NCBI GenBank assembly: GCA_041649135.1
Contig: JBAZNQ010000001.1
Location: 291,037-355,036, forward strand
Source: Patescibacteria group bacterium
GTDB lineage: Bacteria; Patescibacteriota; Kazan-3B-28
Length of the DNA: 64,000 nucleotides
Direction: 5' to 3'
Of the stretch, positions 5,200 to 63,460 are shown in pieces. Numbering within the stretch: the stretch's first letter is position 1; each line of letters opens with the position of its first letter. Position numbers and translations under genes: made by a program. Below the pieces are notes generated by a model, which did not search any database, was not told the DNA's origin, and saw only the letters and a list, made by a program, of their open reading frames with translations.

Positions 5200-5535
5200 G
5201 AAAACTCTAAATTCTAATCTCTAAATCCTAAACAAATTATAAATTACAATGTCTTAAACCTTTCCTTCGTCGTCCTCGAGCCGGAATTCTGCTGGACAGC
5301 AGAAGCTCCGACATCGGAGATCCAGACCGAAACAAAAACATTTTTATTTTTCCTTTCTGGATCCTCTGGTTCCATCCTTCGCTCGTTGAGCTTCCTCCGT
5401 CGCCAAGGCTATGAAGGACTCTGACGGAGGACTGACGCAAGCCAGAGGATGACAGTTTTTTTGTTTTATTAGTATTTCTAATTTCGTGCTTCGTGCTTGT
5501 TTAGTATTTCGGATTTCGTGCTTCGTATTTATTTC
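5200..5535. repeat. composite intergenic repeat copy ((CTAAATC)n arms plus GTC...GAC core)
   Basis: ctctaaattctaatctctaaatcctaaacaaatt ... ttagtatttcggatttcgtgcttcg. Confidence 0.5.
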
Positions 5536-5538
5536 TTA

Positions 5539-6231
5539 TTATTTATAGTTATAATTATCATCATATTTACTCTTGCGTTTATCACGCATCACTTTCCCAT
5601 CTTCCAAACTAATCACCCGCCGGTTAATCGTATCAACAACATCCCGATTATGAGTTGCCAACAGTACTGTTGTACCGAGTGAATTAATTTTTAATAACAA
5701 TTTAGCAATCTCACCAGCATTTTTCGGATCTAAATTCCCAGTCGGCTCATCTGCGATCAAAAACTTTGGTTTAAATACCAAAGCTCTGGCAATCGCTACC
5801 CGCTGGGCTTCTCCACCTGACATTTCTCGAGGGAAACTGTCACCCCTCCCCTTCAGCCCTACCAATTCCAGAATCTTCTCCACCTCGGAATCAATCTCAT
5901 TATCCGGCAAACCAGATACTTCTAGGGCAAACGCCACATTCTCCGCTACTGTTTTATTTGGCAATAGTTTGAAATCTTGGAACACCACTCCGATTTGCCG
6001 CCGATAATACGGAATATACTTGTCCTTCAACAAATGAATATCTTTACCGTCAATCGTAATCCGGCCAAAAGTTGGCTTCTCCTCGCACAACAACAACTTA
6101 ATTAAAGTTGATTTTCCAGCACCTGATGGCCCAACTAACGTTACAAACTCCTGTGGGTGAATTGTAAAACTCACCCCGTCCAGAACTTTGTGCGCACCAT
6201 AGTGCTTAGTTACTTTTTCGAATTCAATCAT
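5539..6231 (-). CDS. ftsE: cell division ATP-binding protein FtsE
   Basis: Walker A GPSGAGKST, ABC signature LSGGEAQRVAIARAL, Walker B FLIADEP. Confidence 0.85.
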   Translation of the reverse strand: MIEFEKVTKHYGAHKVLDGVSFTIHPQEFVTLVGPSGAGKSTLIKLLLCEEKPTFGRITIDGKDIHLLKDKYIPYYRRQIGVVFQDFKLLPNKTVAENVAFALEVSGLPDNEIDSEVEKILELVGLKGRGDSFPREMSGGEAQRVAIARALVFKPKFLIADEPTGNLDPKNAGEIAKLLLKINSLGTTVLLATHNRDVVDTINRRVISLEDGKVMRDKRKSKYDDNYNYK

Positions 6232-8710: not shown

Positions 8711-8928
8711 TTTGCTTTGGTCTTTGTTATTTGTAGTTTGTTTGATTATTGGACATTGGATATTGGATATTACAAAAGGGCGCCCAAAGCGCTACCATAA
8801 CTATTCATCGAAGATCACCCGAAGCTTTATGCGAAGGGTGACTACTCTCACTTATCACTATTCACTTTTAACTATTAACTATAAAGGAGCTTCTTCCGAA
8901 GCTCCTTTATTCTGCTTATTCCTTTAAT

Positions 8929-15592: not shown

Positions 15593-18412
15593 CTATGCGC
15601 CATGACATTTTTTATATTTCTTACCAGAACCACACGGACACGGATCATTCCGCCCAACTTTGTCTTTATGCTCCTGTGGATCGCGTACCGCCCGTAGGTC
15701 CCCCGTAGCTTCACGCGAAGGGGGATCCCCCACCTCCGTTTGGTGATTGGTTATTGATGATTGGCTATTAGTCGCTGGTGATTGGTCATTGGTTATTGGT
15801 GCTTGCGATTCAGCGATTTCCTTCTCTTCGTCGCTGAAATCGCCCTTCGGTTCCGCACCACCTTGTAAATCTAATTTTGCGTCCGGCGTAGCTTTCTTGT
15901 CCGACGTAGCCTTGGTGAAGTTGGAAGCGAAGGAGGACTCACCACCCCGCAACGCCAACTTCTTTTTCTCTTCCAGCTCGTCTTTACCCTGTTGGTCATT
16001 GGTTATTGGAGATTGGATATTATCGTCAGCTTTGCTGACGATTTTAACTTTAAAAATCAATCTCGCCACATCAAACGCTATCGCACTTTGCAATCTCTGA
16101 AACATCGCATACGCCTGCTGTTTGTATTCCACTAATGGATCTCTCTGCCCATACCCCTGCAAACCAATTGCTTCACGCATTTTCATCATCGCGTCAATGT
16201 GCTCCATCCATAAAATATCCATCACTCGCAATAAAACTGCCCGTTCCGCCTGACGAAAATTCCCAATTTCTTCTCCATCCACCATCTGGCTGCCGGCTTC
16301 TTTTTCTTTAGTCTCATATTGTTTCTTTGCTTCCTCTACCAAAATCTCACCCCAGCGTTCTGCACCCGTTTCTTCCAGTTGTTTCTTCAAATCACTCCCG
16401 ACTGGGAAAATATTATTCACATTTTCGATTACCGTCTTAAGATCAGTCGAATAATTATTTGCCAGCAGTCTCAATTCATCAAAAATATAACCCTGTACCA
16501 TCGTTCTGATATCATCCCCTTCCCCCGATTCATGATTCATAATTCGTGATTCTTGATTCAAAATCGCCTGCCTCTGTCTGTACGTCGTTGCTCGATGACG
16601 ATTCATTACATCGTCGTATTCCACGACGCGTTTGCGAATATCAAAGTTATGGCCCTCCACTCGTTTCTGGGCTGACTCAATGCTCGAAGTGATCCACCGA
16701 TGTTCCAACGGCTGATCCTCCGGCATTTTCAGCGTCTTCATCATCGACTTCAGCCGTTCACTACCGAACAACCGCATCAAATCATCTTCCAATGATACAA
16801 AAAATTGCGTGCTCCCCGGATCACCTTGCCGACCAGCTCGACCACGCAGCTGGTTATCAATTCGACGAGACTCGTGCCGCTCGGTACCGATAATATGTAA
16901 ACCACCCAATTCTTTTACGCCTTCACCTAATTTAATGTCCGTTCCTCGACCAGCCATGTTGGTCGCGATCGTTACCATTCCCTTTTGTCCGGCATCTTTG
17001 ACTATCTCGGCTTCTTTTTCGTGATGCTTCGCATTCAAAACACTATGCGGCACTCCTTCCACTTTTAGCATTTCTGACAGCAATTCTGATTTTTCGATTG
17101 CGATCGTACCAACCAAAACCGGCTGACCAGTTTCATATCGGCGTTGAATTTCCTTCACCACCGCCTGAAACTTCATTCGTTCATTGACATAGATCAAATC
17201 ATTCAAATCTTGCCGCACCATTGGCCGATTAGTTGGAACTACTACCACTTCCAAACCATAAATTTTCCAAAACTCTTCTTCTTCAGTCTTGGCCGTACCA
17301 GTCATCCCACCTAACTTGTCGAACAAACGAAAATAGTTCTGGAAAGTGATCGTCGCTAACGTTTTGCTTTCCCGTTTAACTTCAACATTCTCCTTAGCTT
17401 CGATCGCTTGATGTAATCCTTCGGAATATCGACGCCCCTGCATCAACCGACCGGTAAATTCATCGACAATTAACACCTCTCCGTCTTTCACTACATAATC
17501 AACGTCTCTTTTATACATTGCCTGCGCCCGCAGAGCTTGTTCAATGTGATGCGCTAGTAAAATATTACCTGATTCATAAATATCACCGATCCCCAATAGC
17601 TTTTCTATTTTCTCAATTCCCGCTTCCGTCAAAATCGCCGACTTTTGTTTTTCATCAGTCGTGTAATCAACCTCTTTTGTTAGCTGTGGCACGATCGCCG
17701 CAAATTGTTTGTAATGCTGTGTCGATTCCTCATCCGGCGCCGAAATGATCAAAGGCGTTCTGGCCTCATCCACTAAAATCGAGTCAACTTCATCAACGAT
17801 CGCATAATACAATCCCCGTTGAACTTGTTCCTCACGGCTTCCCGCCATATTGTCGCGCAGATAATCAAACCCAAATTCATTATTCGTCCCGTAAGTAATA
17901 TCCGCCGCGTATGCCTGCTTGCGTTCTTCCGGTGAAGTATCGTGAGTAATTGCTCCAACTGTTAATCCCAAAAATTCATACACTTGACCCATCCATTCCG
18001 AGTCACGTTTTGCCAGATAATCGTTTACCGTTACGATGTGCACTCCCTTACCCGCTAATGCGTTCAAATATGCTGGTAGAGTTGAAACCAAAGTTTTACC
18101 CTCACCTGTTCTCATTTCCGAAATCTTGCCTTGATGTAACACAATGCCACCCATTAACTGCACATCAAAATGCCGCTCACCCAGCGTCCTCTTGGCGGCT
18201 TCGCGCACAACCGCAAATGCCTCCGGTAAAATATCATCCAAAGTCTGACCCTTGGCCAATAACTCCTTGAAATATTCCGTCTTTGCCCTTAATTCACTAT
18301 CCGCTAGTGGCTGTACACTAGCCTCTAGCCCATTGATCCGATCAACGATCGGCTGGAGCTTTTTAATTGCCTGTTTGTTTGGATCCCCCAAAATCCTCTC
18401 GAGAAACTTCAT
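15593..18412 (-). CDS. secA: preprotein translocase ATPase SecA
   Basis: A 939-aa protein with DEAD-like motor motifs and a C-terminal zinc finger [15 protein letters not shown]. The C-terminal extension contains PITNDQ-type repeats. Confidence 0.9.
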
Positions 18413-34034: not shown

Positions 34035-37000
34035 CTAATTATCCAAACCCGACTGATCAGATTGTTGGGGTTGGTTAGACCCGCCTCCCCATTGGTCAGA
34101 TTGTCGAGATTGATTAGATTGGTGCAGATTGGTTAGATTGTCTGGCAATTCTCCCCACAACCCAACCCCAGGTTCTACTAGCGGCCGGTTTTCCGAAGTC
34201 ATCGGTATAGCTTGCATCGGATTGACTGGCCAGACTGCCTGCCCACTTTGGTTATTGGTCATTGGATATTGGATATTATCCCGCCGGCGGCGGGATCCAA
34301 ACCACTTTCCCATCGCATCAAACCAAACATACAGGATCGGAGTGGTCACAAATGACAAGAAACCAGACACGATAATCCCAAAGACAATGACCGTCGCCAA
34401 CCCTCTCCAGAATGGCGAGAATAGTGCCAACGGCATTAATCCGGCAAAGATAGTCATCTTAGTTAGCAAGATCGGTTTAAACCGAACTGTGATCGAAGTG
34501 GCAATTGCCTCTTGTGCGCTCATCCCCTTCGCTCGCATTTGATTCGCAAAATCAATGATCAGAATTGTAACGTTTACTACGATCCCCGCCATCGCTACCA
34601 CCCCCAATAATTCCAAGAAGCCTAATTGACCAGTCGCAATTGCTACGGCTGGGAATACTCCAATAAAACCTAATGGCACAGCAAATAAAATAATTATTGG
34701 CGACAAGATTGATCTAAAGAAGCCAACCAGAATTATGTAAATCAGGAATAAGGCAATAATTAACGCAATGAACAGCTGGCCGAATGATTCCGTTATTGCC
34801 CCCGCTACCCCTTCCGTTTCCGTTGCGCTTTCGGCATCCAGCCCTAAAGCGTCTAATTTATCATCATCCAAATATTTGGTTAGCTCCGACTGTACCTTTA
34901 ATGGGTCAGTCTCACTATCTACTTTTGCTCTGATCGTCACATATCGTTTGCCATCCAATCTTTCAATGCTCTGCGCTGCTTGTGCTTCAGTTCCGGTAAT
35001 TAAATTATCAACCGTTGGGACACTAATTACTCCGGTCATGGTACTACCGACCGCAGTTGATACCGGCAATTGTTTAATTTCATCCAGACTATCGATCGTC
35101 TTATCCATCTTGGTGATGACCTTATACACCTCGTCATCTAGTTTCAGATTTATCACCTCCGTCTCGTCTAGCTGATTCTTAACCACATTCGCCAAAGCTA
35201 ACGGATTCAAGTTCATTAAATTATTAGTGTCCAAGACTAATGCCGTTCCGCTACTCTTGTCATCAACCTTCAATGAGTTTTCTGTTTTGGTCACACCATC
35301 TTGAGTTTTCAAAAATTCCTCCACATCATTGGCTGCTTTTTGTAGTTTGTCTAAATCTTGATCAAACAACCGGATGCTCACCGGATACGCCTCCTGTGGT
35401 GGAGCTGATTCGTCCATCGTCGCTACTACTTCTGCGCCCTGTAACCCACCAAAGTAATCATTCGCATCCTCCACTAATTTAGCGGCCGTTCTTAAATCTT
35501 CGTCCTGACGTTCTACCATTGGGAACAGTTCCGCCACCATCACGAAGGAATTCCCCGTCTGTTCATAAACCGCAAATTTACTTACTTCTTTCTGCTTTGA
35601 CAAATACTGCTGGACCGGGTCAATAACTTTTATCGCTTTATCAAATGCCCACCGGTCGCTCAACGTACCAGTTATCATCACCATGTCGGCATCGCCAGTC
35701 GAAGCAAACTGCACAACCTTAACTTGCTCTGTGGCGATAAATGCTCCCCCAATTGCTATTGGCGCAATAATTGCCGCCAGAATGATCAAGCCTCTCGCTA
35801 CTTGTTTGCCAACCCCATTCCCCAACAAATTGGTTACTAATCGCCCAATCCATTTTGAGACTGCCCAAACCCCAACCAATTCCGACTTACCATCTGCCTG
35901 CGATTGAACTTTTTTGCTTGGCTTCAACCAATTAGCGCCAACCGGCAAGAAAAATAAAGTCGGTACGATAAAGGACGACACCACTGCCGGAATAACTGTC
36001 TGGGGAATATATTGGATGATTTGTCCAAAAAATCCCGACACCACTCCGAATGGAATAAATACCACAAAATTAGCGATAGCTGACAAGAGCACCCCCAATC
36101 CTACTGCGTTAAAAGTTTTGATTGCCGCCTCTTTACCGGAATAGCCTTGTTCCCGATATCGTTGCATCGCCTCCAAAAACACGATCGTCGGGTCAACTAC
36201 CAGCCCGACCACCAAGATCATTGAAAACAATACGATCGTATTAATTGAAATCCCCGCTAGCTTCAAATAAGCAGTCGTCATCCCGAGCGCTAACGGGATC
36301 GATAATCCAGCCAAGACTGCTACTCGCCAGTTCACAAAGATCAGCAAGAACAGCACCACCAAAGTAATCCCGCCGAACAGATAACCGATCACCCCCAACG
36401 ATCCTAATGCCTCTATATTGCCGCCGATAATACTCTTCTTGATCTCCGATAATTGATCACCAGTATATTTGGCTACGTCATACACTTTGATGATCCTGAC
36501 ATTGCCAGACAATCGCGAATCGTCTTCCAGTTCCGCATATTTATCGTCCAACCGTTCGCCTAAAGCTAACACGTCTTCGTTGGTCTCTGCCATTACCCAA
36601 AGCACAACCGCTCGGTCAATCCGCATCCCGCCCGCATCTTCGATTGCTTCATCACCATCATTCTCTCTGGAACCAACTCGATTGTAGTAATCGTTGTTAT
36701 TAATCGTCTGTTTAATCGTCGCAATATCTTTCAATCTGACATTTGGGCCGATCAACATATTCTCTAACTCACTTATTTCGGTCAGCGGCCGTTTGACGCT
36801 TAGAGAGTACTTATCTTGTTGTTCATCATAAAAAGATCCCAACGGCATCTCAAATTGAGCCGCTTTCAGTAGCGCCTCAACCTGTGTCCGCTGGATTCCC
36901 ATTTGGGAGAGCTTCGCACTATCAAACGTAATTTCGATCTCTGGCGTTAACGGATTGCTGATCTTAACTTCTTTTACCCCCTTAACTGTCTCCAGCTCAT

Positions 37001-37901: not shown

Positions 37902-37976
37902 TGGTGGACCCGGGTGGGATCGAACCACCGACCTTTCCGATGTGAACGGAACGCTCTACCACTGAGCCACGAGTCC
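37902..37976 (-). tRNA. tRNA-Val (anticodon CAC)
   Basis: Reverse complement GGACTCGTGGCTCAGTGGTAGAGCGTTCCGTTCACATCGGAAAGGTCGGTGGTTCGATCCCACCCGGGTCCACCA. Cloverleaf with D-loop AGTGGTAGAGC, anticodon loop TTCACAT, T-loop GGTTCGATCC and an encoded CCA. Confidence 0.85.
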
Positions 37977-40279: not shown

Positions 40280-40660
40280 CAAAAATTCTAAATTCTAATC
40301 TCTAAATCCTAAACAAATCCCAAATTCCTCTGAAAATTCTAAACTCGAAACTCTAAATTCTAAACAAATTCTAAATTCTAATGCTTCAAACGTTTCCTGT
40401 GTCATTCCCACCCTCTTCTTTGTCATTCCCGCGTAGGCGGGAATCCAGCCAAGAACAAAAACATTTTTTCTTTTTTCTGTCCCTGGCCGCGACCGCAGGC
40501 AGGCTGGATGCGGTCGCCACGGCGACCTTACCAGAATGACGGTCTTTTGTTTCGGTAATTGTTATTTCGAGCTTGTTTAGTATTTCTGATTTCGGATTTC
40601 GTGTTTTTATTTCTGGATACTAGATGCTAGATACTAGATACTGAATTGTGTTTCGGATTT
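40280..40660. repeat. composite intergenic repeat, near-identical to 1000-1260 over more than 110 bp
   Basis: ctgaaaattctaaactcgaaactctaaattctaaacaaattctaaattctaatgcttcaaacgtttcctgtgtcattcccaccctcttctttgtcattcccgcgtaggcgggaatccagccaagaacaaaaacattttttcttttttctgtc. Confidence 0.65.
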
Positions 40661-44770: not shown

Positions 44771-45092
44771 CACAGACCCCCTCCCTCTATGAGATACCTT
44801 TACCCTACCAAAAAACCCGCTCCTAGTCAAGACTTTCCTATTTCTGCCCCCTATTCCCATTGAGCAAATTGCGTCCGCCAATAGCAAAATTAACCGGTAT
44901 GGATAGCGTCTGTTTGAGCCCCGACTTGTTGGGGCGAGTATAGCGTATAGTCCAGAAAGGTTAATTTTGGTTAATTGGCTAGCTATTTGTAATTGGGCGT
45001 CCTTTCGGTGCTACCGCGCAAGGACTAAGCAAAGCGGTAGCGAAAAAGAACGGCCGACGTCAGTCGGCCAAAGGTCGTCTGCAAGATAAAAA

Positions 45093-46092: not shown

Positions 46093-46138
46093 CCTCTTTG
46101 TGGTAATTGGTTATTGGATATTGGATATTACCGGTTGC

Positions 46139-48979
46139 TTACGAGCAACCGGTTGTCGTCCCACATTCCCGACAGGAATAACATGTTCCGTTCCGAATCA
46201 TGAACGCTCCACAAGTCGGACACGGCGGTGCCGAACTTTCTCTGACATCCCCGTTAGTTTCCATTTTTATTTCTAATGAAGTTTGGACTGGCAACGGTTC
46301 TGGCGTCTCCATTTCCTGTTCACTTTTCACACTCTCTGCTCCATCCACATTCGTGATGTCGCTTTGTTCTAACGACCTCGCCACATCCTCACCGATGATC
46401 CCCATCATGACTTGTTTTTCGACTGGCAAATAATGCCGACCTATCCATCTAGCAATATAATCCGGAATTGATTTCGCAAACGGAATGTCCATATCATCAG
46501 TCGCTCCCCACGGCTCAAATCGCATATTGATCAACGAATCAACTAATGATTCTACCGATTCACCACGTTGTAGCGCTTTCGACAACAATCGCGCTAGTGT
46601 ATCCATTAACCCCGAGAAAGCGGAACCTTCTCGCGCTGTTTTTAGAAAAATCTCACCCAATCGCCCATCATCATAAAGATTTGCTGTTACATACACCTTA
46701 TGATCACCCACAATAAAACTATGAGTCAGCCCGTGACGAGTTTTAGGCATATCCCGTTCCTGTAATTTTGGCAATTGCTGAACTTCTGGCAATTTTTCCT
46801 CGTCTTTTTTCTTTACCGTCAAAGGCTGTGACGCTTTACAATTGTCCCGATACAACGCCAACGCTTTGATGCCCTTTTTCCATGATTCAACATAAACTTG
46901 CTCCACTTCCTCCACCGTCACTTCTTCCGGCATATTCACCGTCTTGCTGATCGCACCCGACAAAAACGGCTGAACCGCCGCCATCATATCGACATGCGCC
47001 ATTGGTCGGATAAATCTAGTCCCGTTACCGACTTTATTGGCACAATCAAATACCGGCAAATGTTCCGCCCGAACATGTGGTGCTCCCTCAATCGTGCCAT
47101 TCTCCAAAATATAATCATTAATTTCTTTAGTCTCGGTTGGATTGTATCCCAATTGTTCTAGCGCTGACACCACCGACTGGTTCACAATTGCATATCCGCC
47201 GCCGCCAGCCAATTTTTTGTATTTCACCAAAGCAAAGTCCGGTTCAATCCCAGTCGTATCCGCGTCCATCAATGGTCCGATCGTTCCAGTTGGCGCCAGT
47301 ACCGTTGCCTGCGCATTGCGATAACCGTTTTTCTCACCCATCACCAACGCTTCGTCCCAATCCTGCTTTGCCGCTGCGAATAATTCCGCTGTCAGATTCC
47401 GACTATCAATTTGATACGCCGCGTTGCGATGCATTTTAATCACTTCCAACATTGATTCACGATTTTTCAAAAAACCGGAGAATGTCCCAACTCGCCCAGC
47501 CATCCGTGCTGATTGAGCGTAAGCTCGGCCGGTCATGATCGCCGTCGCCGCCGCCGCCAATGCCCGACCGCCATCAGAATCATATGGCAAACCCACTCGC
47601 ATCAAATACGCGCCTAAATTAGCGTAACCCATCCCCAATGGTCGATATTCATGCGAATTTTGAGCGATGGTTCGCCCCGGAAAAGACGAGAAATCAACTA
47701 AAATTTCTTGAGCGGCAATCATCACATCAACAGTATGCCGATAAGCTTCAATATCCAGTTGACCGTCCTCGGTCAGATATTTGACCAAATTAATCGAAGC
47801 TAAATTACACGCCGAATCATCCAAAAACATGTATTCGCTACATGGATTACTGGCGTTAATTCTGCCGGTTACTTTGCAGGTATGCCATTTATTAATCGTC
47901 GTATCATATTGCATCCCCGGATCAGCACACCGCCAAGCTGCTTGAGCGATTTCCCGCATCACTTGTCGCGCCGGTAACGTCCGAATTACTTCACCAGTAG
48001 TTACCGCTCGCAAATCCCAATTGCCACCATCCAGATAAGCTTGCATAAACTCATCTGTCACTCTGATAGAATTATTCGAATTCTGTCCACCAACTGTTTG
48101 ATACGCTTCACCATTGAAATCAGCCGGTAATCCACCCTCAATCAAAATTTTTGCCTTTTCCTCCTCTCGTTCCTTCCAGTGAATGAATTCCATAATTTCC
48201 GGATGATCCACATTCATGATCACCATCTTGGCCGCTCGCCGAGTTGTTCCACCTGATTTAGTCGCCCCAGCTCCGGTGTCATAGACTTTCAAAAATGACA
48301 ACACCCCAGAAGACATCCCTCCCCCTGACAACTTTTCATATTTTGACCTCAACGTCGAAAAGTTAGTACCAGAACCACTGCCATATTTAAACAATTGTGA
48401 TTCTTTTTTTAACAGATCAAAAATGTCCGACAAATCATCTCTTACCGATTGGATAAAACACGCTGACGCCTGCGGATGTTCATAAGCATTAATCGCCACT
48501 TCGATATCATTACTCTCTGGGTTCCAAAACCAATTTTGTGAACTGCCAGTAATTCCATATTCATGGAACAATCCTACGTTAAACCAGACTGGTGAATTAA
48601 AGGCCGCTCTTTGTGTTACTAAAATAAACTTCAATTCATCTTCAAAAATATCTGCTTCGTCTGTTGACACCAGATGACCGAGCTTCTCACCAGCCATCCG
48701 AATCGTATGCGCCACTCGATGTACCAGCTGGCGGATCGAGGTCTCCATCCCCTCTGGACTGTTCACTCCCCGCTTTCTCAAATATTTATACGCTGCTATC
48801 GTCGCCGCAGTCTCCGACCACGATAATGGTACTTCGATCTCCCTGTCTAACAGCATCGAACCATCAGTATCCTTCAGACTGACATGCCGCATCCCCCAAT
48901 CGATTAATTTAAATACATCGTCCCCTTCCCGTGTAAAATGCCGACTAACCAAACCCTGTGTTGCAACTTTTCCCTCCAT
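46139..48979 (-). CDS. nrdJ: class II (adenosylcobalamin-dependent) ribonucleotide reductase with a C-terminal zinc ribbon
   Basis: A 946-aa protein with an RNR barrel containing the NPCSE motif and the tail CPTCGAFMIRNGTCYSCRECG. Confidence 0.85.
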   Translation of the reverse strand: MEGKVATQGLVSRHFTREGDDVFKLIDWGMRHVSLKDTDGSMLLDREIEVPLSWSETAATIAAYKYLRKRGVNSPEGMETSIRQLVHRVAHTIRMAGEKLGHLVSTDEADIFEDELKFILVTQRAAFNSPVWFNVGLFHEYGITGSSQNWFWNPESNDIEVAINAYEHPQASACFIQSVRDDLSDIFDLLKKESQLFKYGSGSGTNFSTLRSKYEKLSGGGMSSGVLSFLKVYDTGAGATKSGGTTRRAAKMVIMNVDHPEIMEFIHWKEREEEKAKILIEGGLPADFNGEAYQTVGGQNSNNSIRVTDEFMQAYLDGGNWDLRAVTTGEVIRTLPARQVMREIAQAAWRCADPGMQYDTTINKWHTCKVTGRINASNPCSEYMFLDDSACNLASINLVKYLTEDGQLDIEAYRHTVDVMIAAQEILVDFSSFPGRTIAQNSHEYRPLGMGYANLGAYLMRVGLPYDSDGGRALAAAATAIMTGRAYAQSARMAGRVGTFSGFLKNRESMLEVIKMHRNAAYQIDSRNLTAELFAAAKQDWDEALVMGEKNGYRNAQATVLAPTGTIGPLMDADTTGIEPDFALVKYKKLAGGGGYAIVNQSVVSALEQLGYNPTETKEINDYILENGTIEGAPHVRAEHLPVFDCANKVGNGTRFIRPMAHVDMMAAVQPFLSGAISKTVNMPEEVTVEEVEQVYVESWKKGIKALALYRDNCKASQPLTVKKKDEEKLPEVQQLPKLQERDMPKTRHGLTHSFIVGDHKVYVTANLYDDGRLGEIFLKTAREGSAFSGLMDTLARLLSKALQRGESVESLVDSLINMRFEPWGATDDMDIPFAKSIPDYIARWIGRHYLPVEKQVMMGIIGEDVARSLEQSDITNVDGAESVKSEQEMETPEPLPVQTSLEIKMETNGDVRESSAPPCPTCGAFMIRNGTCYSCRECGTTTGCS

Positions 48980-49059: not shown

Positions 49060-49380
49060 TACAATTCTAAACCCCAATTTGTCTTTCTGCTCCTCCCTCC
49101 GTCATTCCCGCGAAGGCGGGAATCCATTTCTTCCTGTCATTCTGAACCCTTCAATTCTTCAGGACAGGCTCCGCGAAGAATCTAGTTCCGGTTTACCGGA
49201 ACGACTATCGTCTAGATCCTTCATTTCATTCAGGATGACAGCACGACTGTTTATTTTGTTTATTGATAATTGACCATTGCTTCTGTTTATTGTGATTTTT
49301 TTGTTGATTGGTTATTGGATATTGATTATTACCTCTGTTTATTGGTTATTACTTCTGGTCATTGATTATTGGATATTGGA
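49060..49380. repeat. composite intergenic repeat (GTCATTC palindromes plus a (TTGGATA)n-like array) between nrdR and nrdJ
   Basis: gtcattcccgcgaaggcgggaatcc; gtcattctgaaccc...ttcaggatgac; ttggttattggatattggatatta. Confidence 0.55.
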
Positions 49381-49382
49381 TA

Positions 49383-49850
49383 TTACTTATTGGTCGCTTT
49401 GCGACCAATAAGTTTCTGTATTTCCTTTTCAAAAGTCTCCAAATCAGTAAATTTTCGATATACTGCCGCAAACCGAATATATGCCACACTATCTACCTGT
49501 TCCAATTTACTGATTACGATTTCGCCGATCTCCGCCGAATTAACTTCTTCACGATTCAATTCGTAAACTGCTCGTTCAATATCATCAATTACTTTTTCAA
49601 TATCCGCCGCCGACAAAGGCCGTTTGTAAAACGCTTTATAAATTCCGGCTGACAATTTGTCTCTCTCGAACAACTCTCGCGAACTATCTTTTTTTATTAC
49701 CATCAATCTCGGCTGTTCTGCCCGCTCATAAGTCGTGAATCTAAAATTACACTTCACGCATTCCCGTCGCCGCCGAACACTTGCATGATCCTCCGCAATT
49801 CGAGAATCAATTACCGCGCTTTCTAATTCACCACATTGTGGACAACGCAT
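49383..49850 (-). CDS. nrdR: transcriptional repressor NrdR
   Basis: MRCPQCG...CVKCNFRFTTYE zinc ribbon plus an ATP-cone. Confidence 0.85.
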   Translation of the reverse strand: MRCPQCGELESAVIDSRIAEDHASVRRRRECVKCNFRFTTYERAEQPRLMVIKKDSSRELFERDKLSAGIYKAFYKRPLSAADIEKVIDDIERAVYELNREEVNSAEIGEIVISKLEQVDSVAYIRFAAVYRKFTDLETFEKEIQKLIGRKATNK

Positions 49851-51360: not shown

Positions 51361-51477
51361 TGAACAAATGCTTTGCTGATTGGCTGTTGTTGGCGGGAGG
51401 CATTGCGTTAGTAATAGTCATGCTCCTCGCCGACACCTCACAATGGCCATCATGGGGGCTGACACCACCCATGTAGA
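51361..51477 (+). CDS. putative 38-aa membrane peptide
   Basis: MNKCFADWLLLAGGIALVIVMLLADTSQWPSWGLTPPM, own promoter-like box and terminator module. Confidence 0.2.
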
Positions 51478-51530
51478 ACAGTCACCCAGTTGGTCACCCA
51501 TCCCGCCCGACTCTCGTCGGGCTTTTTCTT

Positions 51531-51720
51531 GTCCCCATTCCCCCTCCGCCATTGGAGCTTGAGCGTCCTGAATCAGTAAAATCCCTCCAATCAGCGTGCC
51601 CATGTTTGAGGAGCTTTAGCTCCGAGTTTGGCGATAAGCAGATGGGGAGGATTTTACTAGATTCAGAGTCGAAAGCGACTGGCGGGAACTTTTGCGTTAC
51701 TTTTCTAGAAAAGTAACCGC
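51531..51720. ncRNA. conserved ~185-nt structured element, copy 1 (candidate ncRNA or mobile-element end)
   Basis: More than 90% identical to 58441-58625 and 63166-63345. Long-range helix cctgaatcagtaaaatccctcc / ggaggattttactagattcag and a perfect local hairpin gttacttttctagaaaagtaac. Confidence 0.4.
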
Positions 51721-51966
51721 CATGCCAAGCGCGGCGAGAGTGCTTGAAAAGAAACATAAAAATGGATTCCCGCCTACGCGGGAATGACAAAAAAGAATAA
51801 GAAAAAATAAACAATGCCCCGCCATTACTGGCGGGGCATCGCTTGGTTTATTTATTTTAGAGGTGGAGATGGGAGCAGGTCAGCTTGGTTTCAATTTATT
51901 GAAACTCGGGCTTCCCGACTGACCGTTGAGGGAAGAACACACCTCCGTTCTTCCCTCAAGAGCTAG

Positions 51967-55624: not shown

Positions 55625-56040
55625 ATTCTAAATTCGAAACTCTAAATCCCAAACAAATTATAAATTACAATGTTCCAAACTTCTTCTTTCGTCATTCTGG
55701 GAATTCTGCCGTATGGCAGAAGACGCCAGAATCTTATTCGATTAGTCATTCTTTTCCCCTTCGTCATTCTGGGGGGGATGAGATGACTCCAGCATCTTAT
55801 CAAATAATCCTTCCCGCTCCTTCCTTTGTCATTCCCGCGTAGGCGGGAATCCATTTTTGTCCAGTCATTCTGGCTTGACCAGAATCTTATTAATAATTAT
55901 TTCCTACGATTCTGGATGCGGTTGCCACGGCGACCTTACCAGAATGACGGTCTTTTTGTTTTTGTCTTTACCCCTAGATACTAGATACTGAATACTAGAT
56001 ACTGACTTATGTTTCGGATTTCGGGTTTCGGATTTGATGC
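55625..56040. repeat. composite intergenic repeat (several GTCATTC...GAATGAC palindromes, a TTCTGCC-N4-GGCAGAA hairpin and a (TTTCGGA)n arm)
   Basis: Shares the ggatgcggt(c/t)gccacggcgaccttaccagaatgacggtc sub-module with 40500-40550. Confidence 0.6.
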
Positions 56041-58367: not shown

Positions 58368-58440
58368 ACCGCTATCATACCACTCCGCCCCCTCCCTCCG
58401 GCCATTAGGTGTAGCGTCGTCCTGAAAATGTCCGCCTCCG

Positions 58441-58625
58441 CCGCCATTGGAGCTTGAGCGTCCTGAATCAGTAAAATCCCTCCAATCAGCGTGCCCATGT
58501 TTGAGGAGCGTAGCGACGAGTTTGGTGATAAGCAGATGGGGAGGATTTTACTAGATTCAGAGTCGAAAGCGACTGGCGGAAACTTTTGTGTTACTTTTCT
58601 AGAAAAGTAACCATCGATGAAGCGG
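58441..58625. ncRNA. conserved ~185-nt structured element, copy 2
   Basis: Nucleotide-level conservation with the copies at 51531 and 63166. No conserved reading frame. A partial tandem duplicate of its 5' 30 nt lies immediately upstream (58405-58440). Confidence 0.4.
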
Positions 58626-58712
58626 GATGTGCCGCTTCAACAAAAACAAATTAAAGAAAATGAACCCGTCAGCTGACGAATGACAAACAAATTTAAAAAA
58701 CCTTAAGAAAAA

Positions 58713-62834: not shown

Positions 62835-63118
62835 CGTATCGCTATTGTACTCTATTGACCCACCCGACCCATCTTGCTAGGATAATCTCGCTGGCGTGCA
62901 TTGGCAAATAGCTGAATATCGTAGACTTGGCCCAAAGCGACACTGGCGCTATTCGCCAGTACACGCCAGCGACCAACTCTGGATTAACCGCACCCGACAG
63001 GTGGGATGCGAGCCTTCTTCTCACGCATGCCGAGAAAGGGCTCGCATCCCTTCACTCCTTCTTGTACCTTCGGGGACACCATCAAGTATTACTCTTGATA
63101 ACCATCATCCCCCTTATG

Positions 63119-63156
63119 CCCCCGCATACTCATCTGTGCGGGGGTTTCTTTTTGTA
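63119..63156 (+). terminator. canonical intrinsic terminator on the plus strand (no annotated plus-strand gene upstream)
   Basis: cccccgcatactcatctgtgcggggg followed by tttctttttg. Confidence 0.5.
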
Positions 63157-63165
63157 TTCCCATCC

Positions 63166-63345
63166 GCCATTGGAGCTTGAGCGTCCTGAATCAATAAAAT
63201 CCCTCCAATCAGCGTGCCCGCTGTTTGACGACCGTAGGGAGGAGTTCGGTGATAAGCAGATGGAGAGGATTTTGTTAGATTCAGAGCGAAAGCGACTGGC
63301 GGAAACTTTTGTGTTACTTTTCTAGAAAAGTAACCGCCACCTTCA
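63166..63345. ncRNA. conserved ~185-nt structured element, copy 3
   Basis: Relative to copy 1 it carries a compensatory pair change in the long helix (cagtaaaat/attttactag becomes caataaaat/attttgttag). Confidence 0.4.
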
Positions 63346-63354
63346 GTACGGCGT

Positions 63355-63460
63355 GAGTACTGGAAAAGAAAAATAAACAAAAACATTTTCTGTTTCTGTC
63401 TGGATTCCCGCCGGAGTTTATCCCGACTAGTCGGGGCGGGAATGACAAAAAAGAAAAACG
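63355..63460. repeat. GATTCCCGCC-palindrome-GGCGGGAATGAC repeat copy
   Basis: aaaacattttctgtttctgtctggattcccgccggagtttatcccgactagtcggggcgggaatgac. Confidence 0.55.

Follow-up and report, generated by a model that had tools for sequence, protein, structure and literature searches.

A 64-kb stretch of DNA from a Patescibacteria group bacterium of the Kazan-3B-28 lineage (contig JBAZNQ010000001.1, positions 291,037–355,036; hereafter the window) contains several copies of a structured element of approximately 180–250 nt. Upon following this element through the window and through DNA of related genomes, we determined that it belongs to a family of previously undescribed, dispersed, non-coding, hairpin-forming repeat elements, which, as far as sampled, is confined to a Kazan-related clade of the Patescibacteria. 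Because copies are dense, fall into coexisting subfamilies, turn over at their sites, are accompanied by stubs, can be nearly identical within a genome alongside divergence between genomes, and are absent from some relatives, we assign a probability of roughly one half to the reading that this is a new family of non-autonomous dispersed hairpin repeats resembling the REPIN and ERIC elements. A preliminary description of the window had recognized an element that is conserved, structured, non-coding and present in multiple copies and that carries real compensatory changes, and this is supported by our analyses; two of the identities it offered, a multi-copy small RNA (sRNA) and a non-autonomous mobile element, are the live readings.

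The three copies originally recognized had been placed correctly to within about 15 nt. Covariance-model searches refined them to 51546–51722 (copy 1), 58441–58616 (copy 2) and 63164–63339 (copy 3), all on the + strand, with E-values of 1e-34 to 1e-48; E-values of home-built covariance models are rough, and the bit scores are large. The reported identity of more than 90% was likewise borne out, the mean column identity being 95% over the 176–177 nt of a trimmed alignment, with the differences among copies 1–3 clustered in an apical segment of about 14 nt. For a 20-nt probe taken from the 5' end of the element, no chance matches (0) are expected in the window. The count of three, however, was incomplete, as a covariance-model search with filters off yielded exactly four full copies in the window, plus two 5' stubs. 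Two models were used: R1, built from the three window copies, and R2, built from 13 non-window copies only. R2, constructed without any window sequence, scores copies 1–3, which we designate type A', at 175–180 bits (175.7, 179.7 and 180.4 bits, respectively) and exposes the fourth copy at 44854–45045 (+; 54.6 bits, E ~1e-9), a divergent type B element (TTCCCATTGAGCAAATTG...) that has the same architecture as the others, is closest to copies in the relative L005, and is flanked by two minus-strand genes. One of the stubs (CCGGCCATTAGGTGTAGCGTCGTCCTGAAAATGTCC, 58398–58433, +) is degenerate and lies directly upstream of copy 2; the other (TCGCCATTGGAACTTGAGCG, 2765–2784, +) is isolated, with no rod behind it.

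Our survey covered the 64-kb window plus pieces of about 20 kb from the genomes of relatives, designated here by L numbers. The relatives were found via their PD-(D/E)XK and RecJ proteins and are labelled Patescibacteria or candidate division Kazan; the window DNA itself is also contained in L001, a 420-kb ENA metagenome contig, and in L002, a JGI contig. R1 detects diverged copies in relatives, and a degenerate pattern derived from the most conserved part of the 5' arm revealed more of them in metagenome contigs from JGI. The models recovered a total of 26 distinct copies from 14 related DNA stretches, and these were aligned. The preliminary description had suggested a comparison with Rfam by Infernal, and this comparison places the element in no known Rfam family at either gathering or permissive thresholds: at the gathering score of Rfam 15 there was no element match in the window, where the sole match was a tRNA (37905–37976), and nothing credible overlapped the copies at E <= 10 (copy 1) or E <= 1 (copies of L012, L015 and L004), the best overlap being RF02590 at 23.5 bits versus a gathering score of 208. 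An exact pattern, GCGTCCTGAATCANTAAAATCC, gave 0 matches in GTDB species genomes or JGI metagenome contigs, being too specific to the window subfamily; L002, which carries it, lies outside the scanned JGI collection. The conserved 5' pattern gave 0 matches in IMG/VR, and a blastn search against phage records matched only a separate palindrome described below. Three viral matches to the 18-nt core of one of the hairpins (HP2, below) were dismissed as chance, R2 finding no element there. Within the window, no targets of the variable apical segments were found at <=2 mismatches, and an exact-product look-up of the PD-(D/E)XK open reading frame (ORF) returned no record. In the literature searched on repeats, miniature inverted-repeat transposable elements (MITEs), structured RNAs or sRNAs of the candidate phyla radiation (CPR)/Patescibacteria, no such element is reported.

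The unit consists of an irregular rod of about 65 bp, hairpin 1 (HP1), followed by one to three short hairpins. For copy 1 the minimum free energy is -72.3 kcal/mol (z = -5.3 versus dinucleotide shuffles), and its predicted fold comprises a long rod, with CCGCCA/TGGCGG as its closing pairs, and a perfect GTTAC...GTAAC hairpin, so that the helix of about 22 bp and the perfect GTTACTTTTCTAGAAAAGTAAC hairpin of the preliminary description are both predicted. In this copy HP1 occupies 51546–51685, with the apical variable stem GGAGCTTTAGCTCC at 51610–51623, and the GTTAC...GTAAC hairpin (HP2) occupies 51696–51717; the conserved unit of copies 1–3 reaches further 3' than had been described, into a third short hairpin (HP3), which in copy 1 is AAGCGC-ggcgaga-GTGCTT followed by an A-rich tract (51727–51745). 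The corresponding parts are at 58441–58579, 58590–58611 and 58619–58638 (GAAGCGG-gatgtg-CCGCTTC) in copy 2, and at 63164–63302, 63313–63334 and 63344–63362 (CAGTAC-ggcgtga-GTACTG) in copy 3, all on the + strand.

Three tandem G.A motifs recur in HP1: basal GGAGC/GCGAC, middle UGAA/UGAA, and apical UUGA-(stem)-GAGUU, the middle one being replaced by Watson–Crick pairs in the subfamily comprising the window copies and L025. The sub-apical region is conserved in sequence (GCGTGCCCA(C)TGTTTGA ... GAGTTTGGTGATAAGC). The apical stem is free in sequence and length, with an insertion of about 70 nt there in L018, and the apical hairpin is fast-evolving yet always paired. The hairpin potential earlier ascribed to the variable centre is real, in that, by hand reading of the sequences, a 5-pair stem is kept in copies 1–3: the stems of copy 2 (58505–58517, in RNA letters GGAGC-GUA-GCGAC) and copy 3 (CGACC-GUA-GGGAG) are distinguished by two base-pair flips flanking a tandem G.A that both retain, and the stem of copy 1 (GGAGC-UUUA-GCUCC) is entirely Watson–Crick. 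The spacer between the rod and HP2 contains the motif TTTG, and HP2 itself has the core ACTTTG-CCAAGA-CAAAGT with covarying outer pairs. HP3, present in many copies with the consensus GAAGCGC-gattcg-GCGCTTC, has stems that covary both between copies and between genomes and is usually followed by A-runs.

In the L012/L015/L028/L004/L018 lineage the unit begins about 35–40 nt earlier with an optional 5' module, in which a small hairpin (TTGGCG-nnA-GCCAA) accompanies a TAATAT/TATAAA box and a CTTCC/CCTCC tract. The window/L005/L008/L025 lineage is without this module and instead has a terminator-like hairpin plus TTTTTCTTGT situated 10–45 nt upstream. Such a hairpin lies at 51505–51532 (+), 14 nt upstream of copy 1, and a module with another stem but the same T-run precedes copy 3 (TTTCTTTTTGT, 63119–63155, +) and the L005, L008 and L025 copies as well. 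The 5' flanks show no conservation past a pyrimidine-rich tract. In the L012 copy at 20057 the stop codon of ftsZ follows HP2 after only 3 nt, which defines where, at a minimum, the unit ends on its 3' side.

Covariation, the absence of which from a larger alignment had been named in advance as grounds for abandoning the proposed structure, is strongly supported. In our alignment A4, 89.1% of the cells are standard pairs, as compared with 33.7–44.2% when the partners are slid by 1–3 columns, and changes on both sides occur in 58 of 59 pairs; none of 500 shuffles reached the observed values. A4 had been fitted to the covariance model, and the test was repeated in a structure-blind manner using MAFFT and RNAalifold on 13 copies, which gave 35 predicted pairs, 27 with double changes. 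Compensatory change maintains the fold. As to the compensatory change first reported in copy 3, where G-C was said to become A-T on both strands of the helix, one true replacement of G-C by A-U stands, while the other change is from U-A to U.G and pairs on the + strand only.

This conservation is at the level of the nucleic acid, as had been proposed, since the ORFs that run through the element lose their frame from one copy to the next and are interrupted in homologues. A family of small protein genes in decay, exemplified by a 54-aa + strand ORF in copy 1, might be suspected from the fact that 7 of about 9 non-apical substitutions between the window copies fall on third positions of that frame (a hand count, with a hand-calculated p of ~0.02) and that many copies are stop-free on the complement. 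However, 1-nt indels break the 54-aa frame in copies 2 and 3, stops occur in L004 and most homologues, where the longest open stretch on the + strand is 20–47 aa, the open frames of the complement change register between copies, and no protein among 5.8 billion sequences shares words with the 54-aa peptide. Judged from these sequences, protein coding appears effectively refuted and can be set aside for practical purposes.

Several observations distinguish the two strands. The element strand folds more stably than its complement in 16/16 copies tested, by 2.4–21.8 kcal/mol; G exceeds C in all 16 of these copies, though C predominates over G on the + strand around them; there are 51 G.U pairs against 18 A.C pairs; and close copies (copy 1 versus copy 3; L005 versus L007) differ by changes that wobble-pair on the element strand only. 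This asymmetry of fold, base composition, G.U content and wobble changes indicates that the single-stranded + form, whether RNA or single-stranded DNA (ssDNA), is what was selected. The window has a G+C content of 42–49% and a very strong GC skew of about -0.25 on the + strand, ranging from -0.12 to -0.30 over the 64 kb, with nearly all of its genes on the minus strand; the elements locally reverse this skew, and their better-folding strand is antisense to the genes around them, which are co-oriented with replication.

All copies are intergenic, at a density of about one per 6–16 kb (four in the 64-kb window; 3–4 per ~21 kb in L012, L014 and L015), and about 24 of the 27 distinct copies are antisense to their flanking genes, often 1–60 nt past a stop codon. 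The genes around the window copies encode a class II ribonucleotide reductase (RNR), NrdR, FtsZ, FtsA, a PD-(D/E)XK protein (PDDEXK), HisS and RecJ, and among relatives we found the conserved order secD-secF-recJ-hisS-...-PDDEXK-HIT-...-ftsA-ftsZ-nrdR-RNR. Over the whole set, copies neighbour unrelated housekeeping genes: secF, recJ, hisS, PDDEXK, HIT, ftsZ, nrdR, dnaJ, pgi, and genes for a class II aminoacyl-tRNA synthetase and an ABC ATPase. The suggestion that the element is a shared leader or riboregulator of nuclease genes is therefore refuted: none of the four window copies shares a strand with PD-(D/E)XK, recJ or ftsZ, and the neighbours in relatives are functionally diverse.

The occupancy of orthologous sites varies. 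The site between secF and recJ, which holds copy 3, is filled in the window, L004 (where the copy is immediately upstream of and antisense to recJ), L005, L008 and L014, while the gap in L009 measures only 66 nt. The site between PDDEXK and HIT is filled in L009, L012, L014 and L015 and empty in the window and L005, the two genes abutting in the latter. Downstream of ftsZ there is a type A' copy in the window, a type B copy in L005 and a type A copy in L012, and the site is unfilled in L015. Types A' and B coexist in the window, and a full copy of one type may be preceded by stubs of another. Within a single genome, copies can be approximately 95% alike, with deep divergence between genomes, and element similarity does not track host relatedness: R1 scores 42–82 bits in relatives with 54–60% RecJ identity (67–82 bits for 6 of 7 copies) and 21–42 bits in relatives with 76–80% identity. 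No copy was found in 32 kb of syntenic DNA in L003 and L013 (search with filters off), from which we conclude that the element is not essential.

Some further features of these sites were seen. In L003 (64% RecJ identity) the secF-recJ site holds a tRNA-Tyr gene (5856–5940, -) on the same antisense strand as the element occupies elsewhere, followed by about 270 nt of unassigned, terminator-ended sequence. L014 has an IS110-family transposase gene (PF02371; 16842–17876, +) inserted between HIT and yqeY, which adjoins no copy of the element. The 5' stubs (CCGCCATTGGAGCTTG... or CCCCATTGAGCAAAT...) stand by themselves or are stacked in front of complete copies, sometimes those of another subfamily, and are also found in 5' flanks in L008 and L012; no 3' remnants matching the 5' stubs were seen in the window or in the L008 and L012 flanks. 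Just upstream of copy 1, at 51361–51477 (+), lies a hydrophobic 38-aa ORF (MNKCFADWLLLAGGIALVIVMLLADTSQWPSWGLTPPM) with its own terminator, which ends a small group of short + strand ORFs converging on ftsZ; it is called as a gene in L001, and a 38-aa gene is called at another locus in L005 and L007. Between the recJ start and the terminator-like hairpin upstream of copy 3 there is a long perfect hairpin (gggatgcgagcc...ggctcgcatccc, 63003–63050, +), which corresponds to what the preliminary description called a structured leader of recJ and which is not conserved in an alignment with L005, L008 and L014.

The best match among known systems is offered by the REPINs, doublets of REP sequences that form hairpins and are mobilized by RAYT proteins; they are extragenic, persist vertically and show frequent compensatory changes (Bertels & Rainey 2011, PMC3116915). 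Since REPINs show such changes as well, covariation alone does not make our element an RNA gene. Like the REPINs, the element is extragenic, non-coding and multi-copy, forms an imperfect inverted-repeat hairpin, has subfamilies within a genome, persists in its lineage, contains no transposase within the unit, and undergoes compensatory hairpin changes in many extragenic copies. It differs from them in being about twice as long, in the asymmetry conferred by its extra 3' hairpins, in its strongly biased orientation and in the conserved tandem G.A motifs; within its long, imperfect inverted repeat, the centre of which is variable, no discrete REP palindromes of about 16–25 nt were identified. 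Moreover, no RAYT, the Y1/HUH transposase that REPIN systems carry as a single-copy gene with the repeats on its flanks, was found among the scanned ORFs of the window or beside the copies, in genomes that were sampled in part, and the host belongs to the CPR, for which the literature searched contains no report of such elements.

The small dispersed repeats of enterobacteria, Neisseria and pneumococci, namely ERIC (IRU), Correia (CREE), BOX and RUP, resemble the element in being intergenic imperfect palindromes of 100–200 nt that are variably present at orthologous sites, are predicted to form long hairpins and lack coding capacity, but none has sequence similarity to it. Correia and RUP elements have the terminal inverted repeats and target duplications typical of MITEs, neither of which was seen in our element, while ERIC and BOX elements are found in either orientation, with a role proposed for them within mRNAs, whereas the stronger fold of our element is on the strand opposite the mRNAs. 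Nor does it conform to a classical DDE-derived MITE, there being no direct repeat in the flanks of 27 copies and no inverted counterpart of HP2 and HP3 at the 5' end. Miniature derivatives of the IS200/IS605 insertion sequences (IS), or palindrome-associated transposable elements (PATEs), and the omega-RNAs are also structured non-coding DNA of about 150–200 nt with terminal hairpins and a replication-biased orientation; however, we identified no matched left-end and right-end hairpins and no conserved target tetranucleotide. The element had also been considered a possible guide-RNA remnant of the TnpB/IscB type, for which we found no support: no tnpA, tnpB, iscB or IS200/605 gene lies beside any of the 26 copies, none was found in the scanned window ORFs, and there is no Rfam match at the thresholds tried. 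The repeated unit is the whole element rather than the terminal repeat of a larger IS.

If the element is such a dispersed repeat, the family would multiply and turn over inside genomes as a non-autonomous REPIN/ERIC-like element, and its one-strand hairpins would be what a trans-acting enzyme recognizes; a single-strand transposase of the HUH/Y1 type is only a guess, and recombination is an alternative to any such enzyme. The orientation bias could then mean that the host tolerates the element only when it is oriented such that the stronger hairpin does not appear in host mRNAs, and the element may also be transcribed from its own strand.

Several observations weigh against this interpretation. 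The check for neighbouring IS200/605 or other transposase genes, proposed at the outset, showed that none adjoins any copy; in addition, no RAYT or other candidate mobilizing gene adjoins any of the 26 copies or is present among the window ORFs scanned, and neither a transposase nor a reverse-transcriptase domain was found in ten further window ORFs. Target-site duplications are absent (the flanks of 27 copies are without a direct repeat), as are sharply defined insertion ends, filled and empty intergenic sites being too diverged to align. The better-folding strand lies on the leading-strand template, opposite to the orientation of IS200/IS605-type elements. The secF-recJ site is occupied across relatives down to 53% RecJ identity, and the orthologous copies at L012 15561 and L015 14562 show compensatory double changes in place; the persistence of this site and the changes in place fit a host-selected function equally well as a persistent repeat. 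Finally, a -10-like box (TAATAT/TATAAA) ~30 nt upstream marks the start of the repeated unit in one lineage and suggests a gene with its own promoter.

The chief rival is a multi-copy family of small structured RNA genes on the + strand, which we regard as possible but as having clearly less than an even chance. Each gene would have its own promoter and yield a rod-shaped RNA of about 200–250 nt with a pyrimidine-rich (CCUCC/CUUCC) 5' tail, tandem G.A motifs that bind protein, and 3' hairpins; the RNA could act in trans, by protein titration or by pairing with Shine–Dalgarno sequences, or as a cis-antisense RNA against the converging gene, and copies would spread by duplication and be homogenized by gene conversion. 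Such genes would fit the fold asymmetry between strands, the excess of G over C, and the conservation across subfamilies of non-Watson–Crick motifs and loops (GCGTGCCCA..TGTTTGA / GAGTTTGG..TAAGC), as well as the syntenic secF-recJ locus and the compensatory change between orthologues. The non-orthologous copies L012 20057, L015 8432 and L028 7862 have in common, within the unit, a -10-like TAATAT/TATAAA box and, after it, CTTCC and a small 5' hairpin, and in L004 HP2 is immediately followed by a canonical terminator made of a hairpin and a T-run. On the other hand, the window, L005, L008 and L025 copies are without the -10-like box and have the terminator-like hairpin 10–45 nt upstream instead; promoter matches are weak and about equally frequent on the other strand, the scan for a -10 box being suggestive in the L012/L015/L028/L004/L018 lineage only and not strand-exclusive; and A-runs rather than T-runs follow the 3' hairpins in most copies. 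The observed density, coexisting subfamilies, stubs and variable occupancy would be unusual for sRNA genes, and the absence from 32 kb of syntenic DNA in two relatives also weighs against them. Among known RNAs, 6S RNA is similar in being a largely double-stranded rod of about 180 nt with internal loops and with paralogues in some genomes, but our element has small internal loops (tandem G.A, and one of ~3x6) in place of a large central bubble, has no Rfam 6S match even at E <= 10, and occurs in many dispersed copies, where 6S RNA usually has one or two conserved loci; those two relatives lack it in the syntenic DNA. The signal recognition particle (SRP) RNA, retron msr/msd, integron attC sites, box C/D-like K-turns, group II introns and 6S RNA were also considered and dropped, since the element lacks defining features such as a central bubble of large size, a helix 8 capped by GNRA, a reverse transcriptase next to it, cassette arrays or a 3-nt bulge.

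Alternatively, selection could act on the gene strand, the element being a cis-acting intercistronic or 3'-untranslated hairpin in host mRNAs that is cut by RNase III or blocks exonucleases and would uncouple or stabilize segments of long operons, roles that have been proposed for ERIC, BOX and Correia elements. The position of copies between co-oriented, probably operonic genes, often 1–60 nt past a stop codon, the strong orientation bias, and the fact that the complement still folds strongly (-45 to -80 kcal/mol) are in keeping with this; however, the gene-strand fold is the weaker one in every copy tested (16/16), with G.U pairs becoming A.C mismatches, the gene strand forms no terminator-like hairpin plus T-run, and copy 1 sits past the own terminator of ftsZ, between convergent genes, so that we consider such a role unlikely. 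A bolder proposal, and one that we regard as rather doubtful, is that the family represents a new, CPR lineage-specific class of abundant rod-shaped structured RNA, or an undescribed type of replicator mobilized via RNA or ssDNA, in which the G.A platform would bind a protein, the apical stem or 5' tail would give each paralogue its specificity, and the product would be expressed antisense between housekeeping operons in a regulatory or RNA-guided role. The argument attached to it is that streamlined genomes should not tolerate 2–3% of repeat DNA without function.

Other repeats are present in the same intergenic DNA. A GGATTCCCGCC...GGGAATGAC palindrome that had been reported within about 30 nt of copies 1 and 3 actually lies 42 nt beyond copy 1 and 63 nt beyond copy 3 and is an independent repeat with at least 10 occurrences in the window. 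These palindromes, GTCATTCCCGCG(A/T)AGGCGGGAATCC (ATTCCC-N8-GGGAAT), occur on both strands, often paired around a AAAACATTTTT spacer, at 1103–1135, 23350–23378, 40420–40450, 49100–49129, 55827–55856, 51764–51788, 63402–63446 and other sites; they also follow element copies in L008, L012 and L015, with covarying stems, and they have the same form as the neisserial dRS3 repeat. Tandem heptamer repeats (TTGGTTA/TTGGATA, AAATTCT/AAATCCT, ACTTTTC/ACTTTTA and TTCGTGC) fill many intergenic regions, including 8741–8782, 15739–15822, 34247–34288, 46099–46140, 49248–49395, 1014–1080, 5201–5267, 40282–40399 and 28290–28390, and analogous heptamers are found upstream of genes in relatives (flanks of L012, L014 and L025).

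One practical consequence is that the element may break short-read metagenome assemblies, and it attracts spurious ORF calls. A contig of the same species, L034 (Logan SRR8542065, 2544 nt), ends about 130 nt past a 106-aa gene, which is roughly where copy 2 would be expected to start, a place inferred rather than read from the L034 sequence.

Patescibacteria have genomes that are among the smallest and most gene-dense of bacteria, yet in the DNA sampled an element of about 200 nt occurs every 6–16 kb, which, if this density held genome-wide, would amount to about 1–3% of the genome (an extrapolation, not a census), and compensatory change has preserved its fold in relatives whose RecJ identity is as low as ~53%. 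If the element is RNA, it would be a new class of large structured non-coding RNA in a lineage without described sRNA regulators in the literature searched. If it is a persistent REPIN-like replicator, the phenomenon would extend to the CPR, in a longer, asymmetric and orientation-biased form for which no mobilizing enzyme is known.

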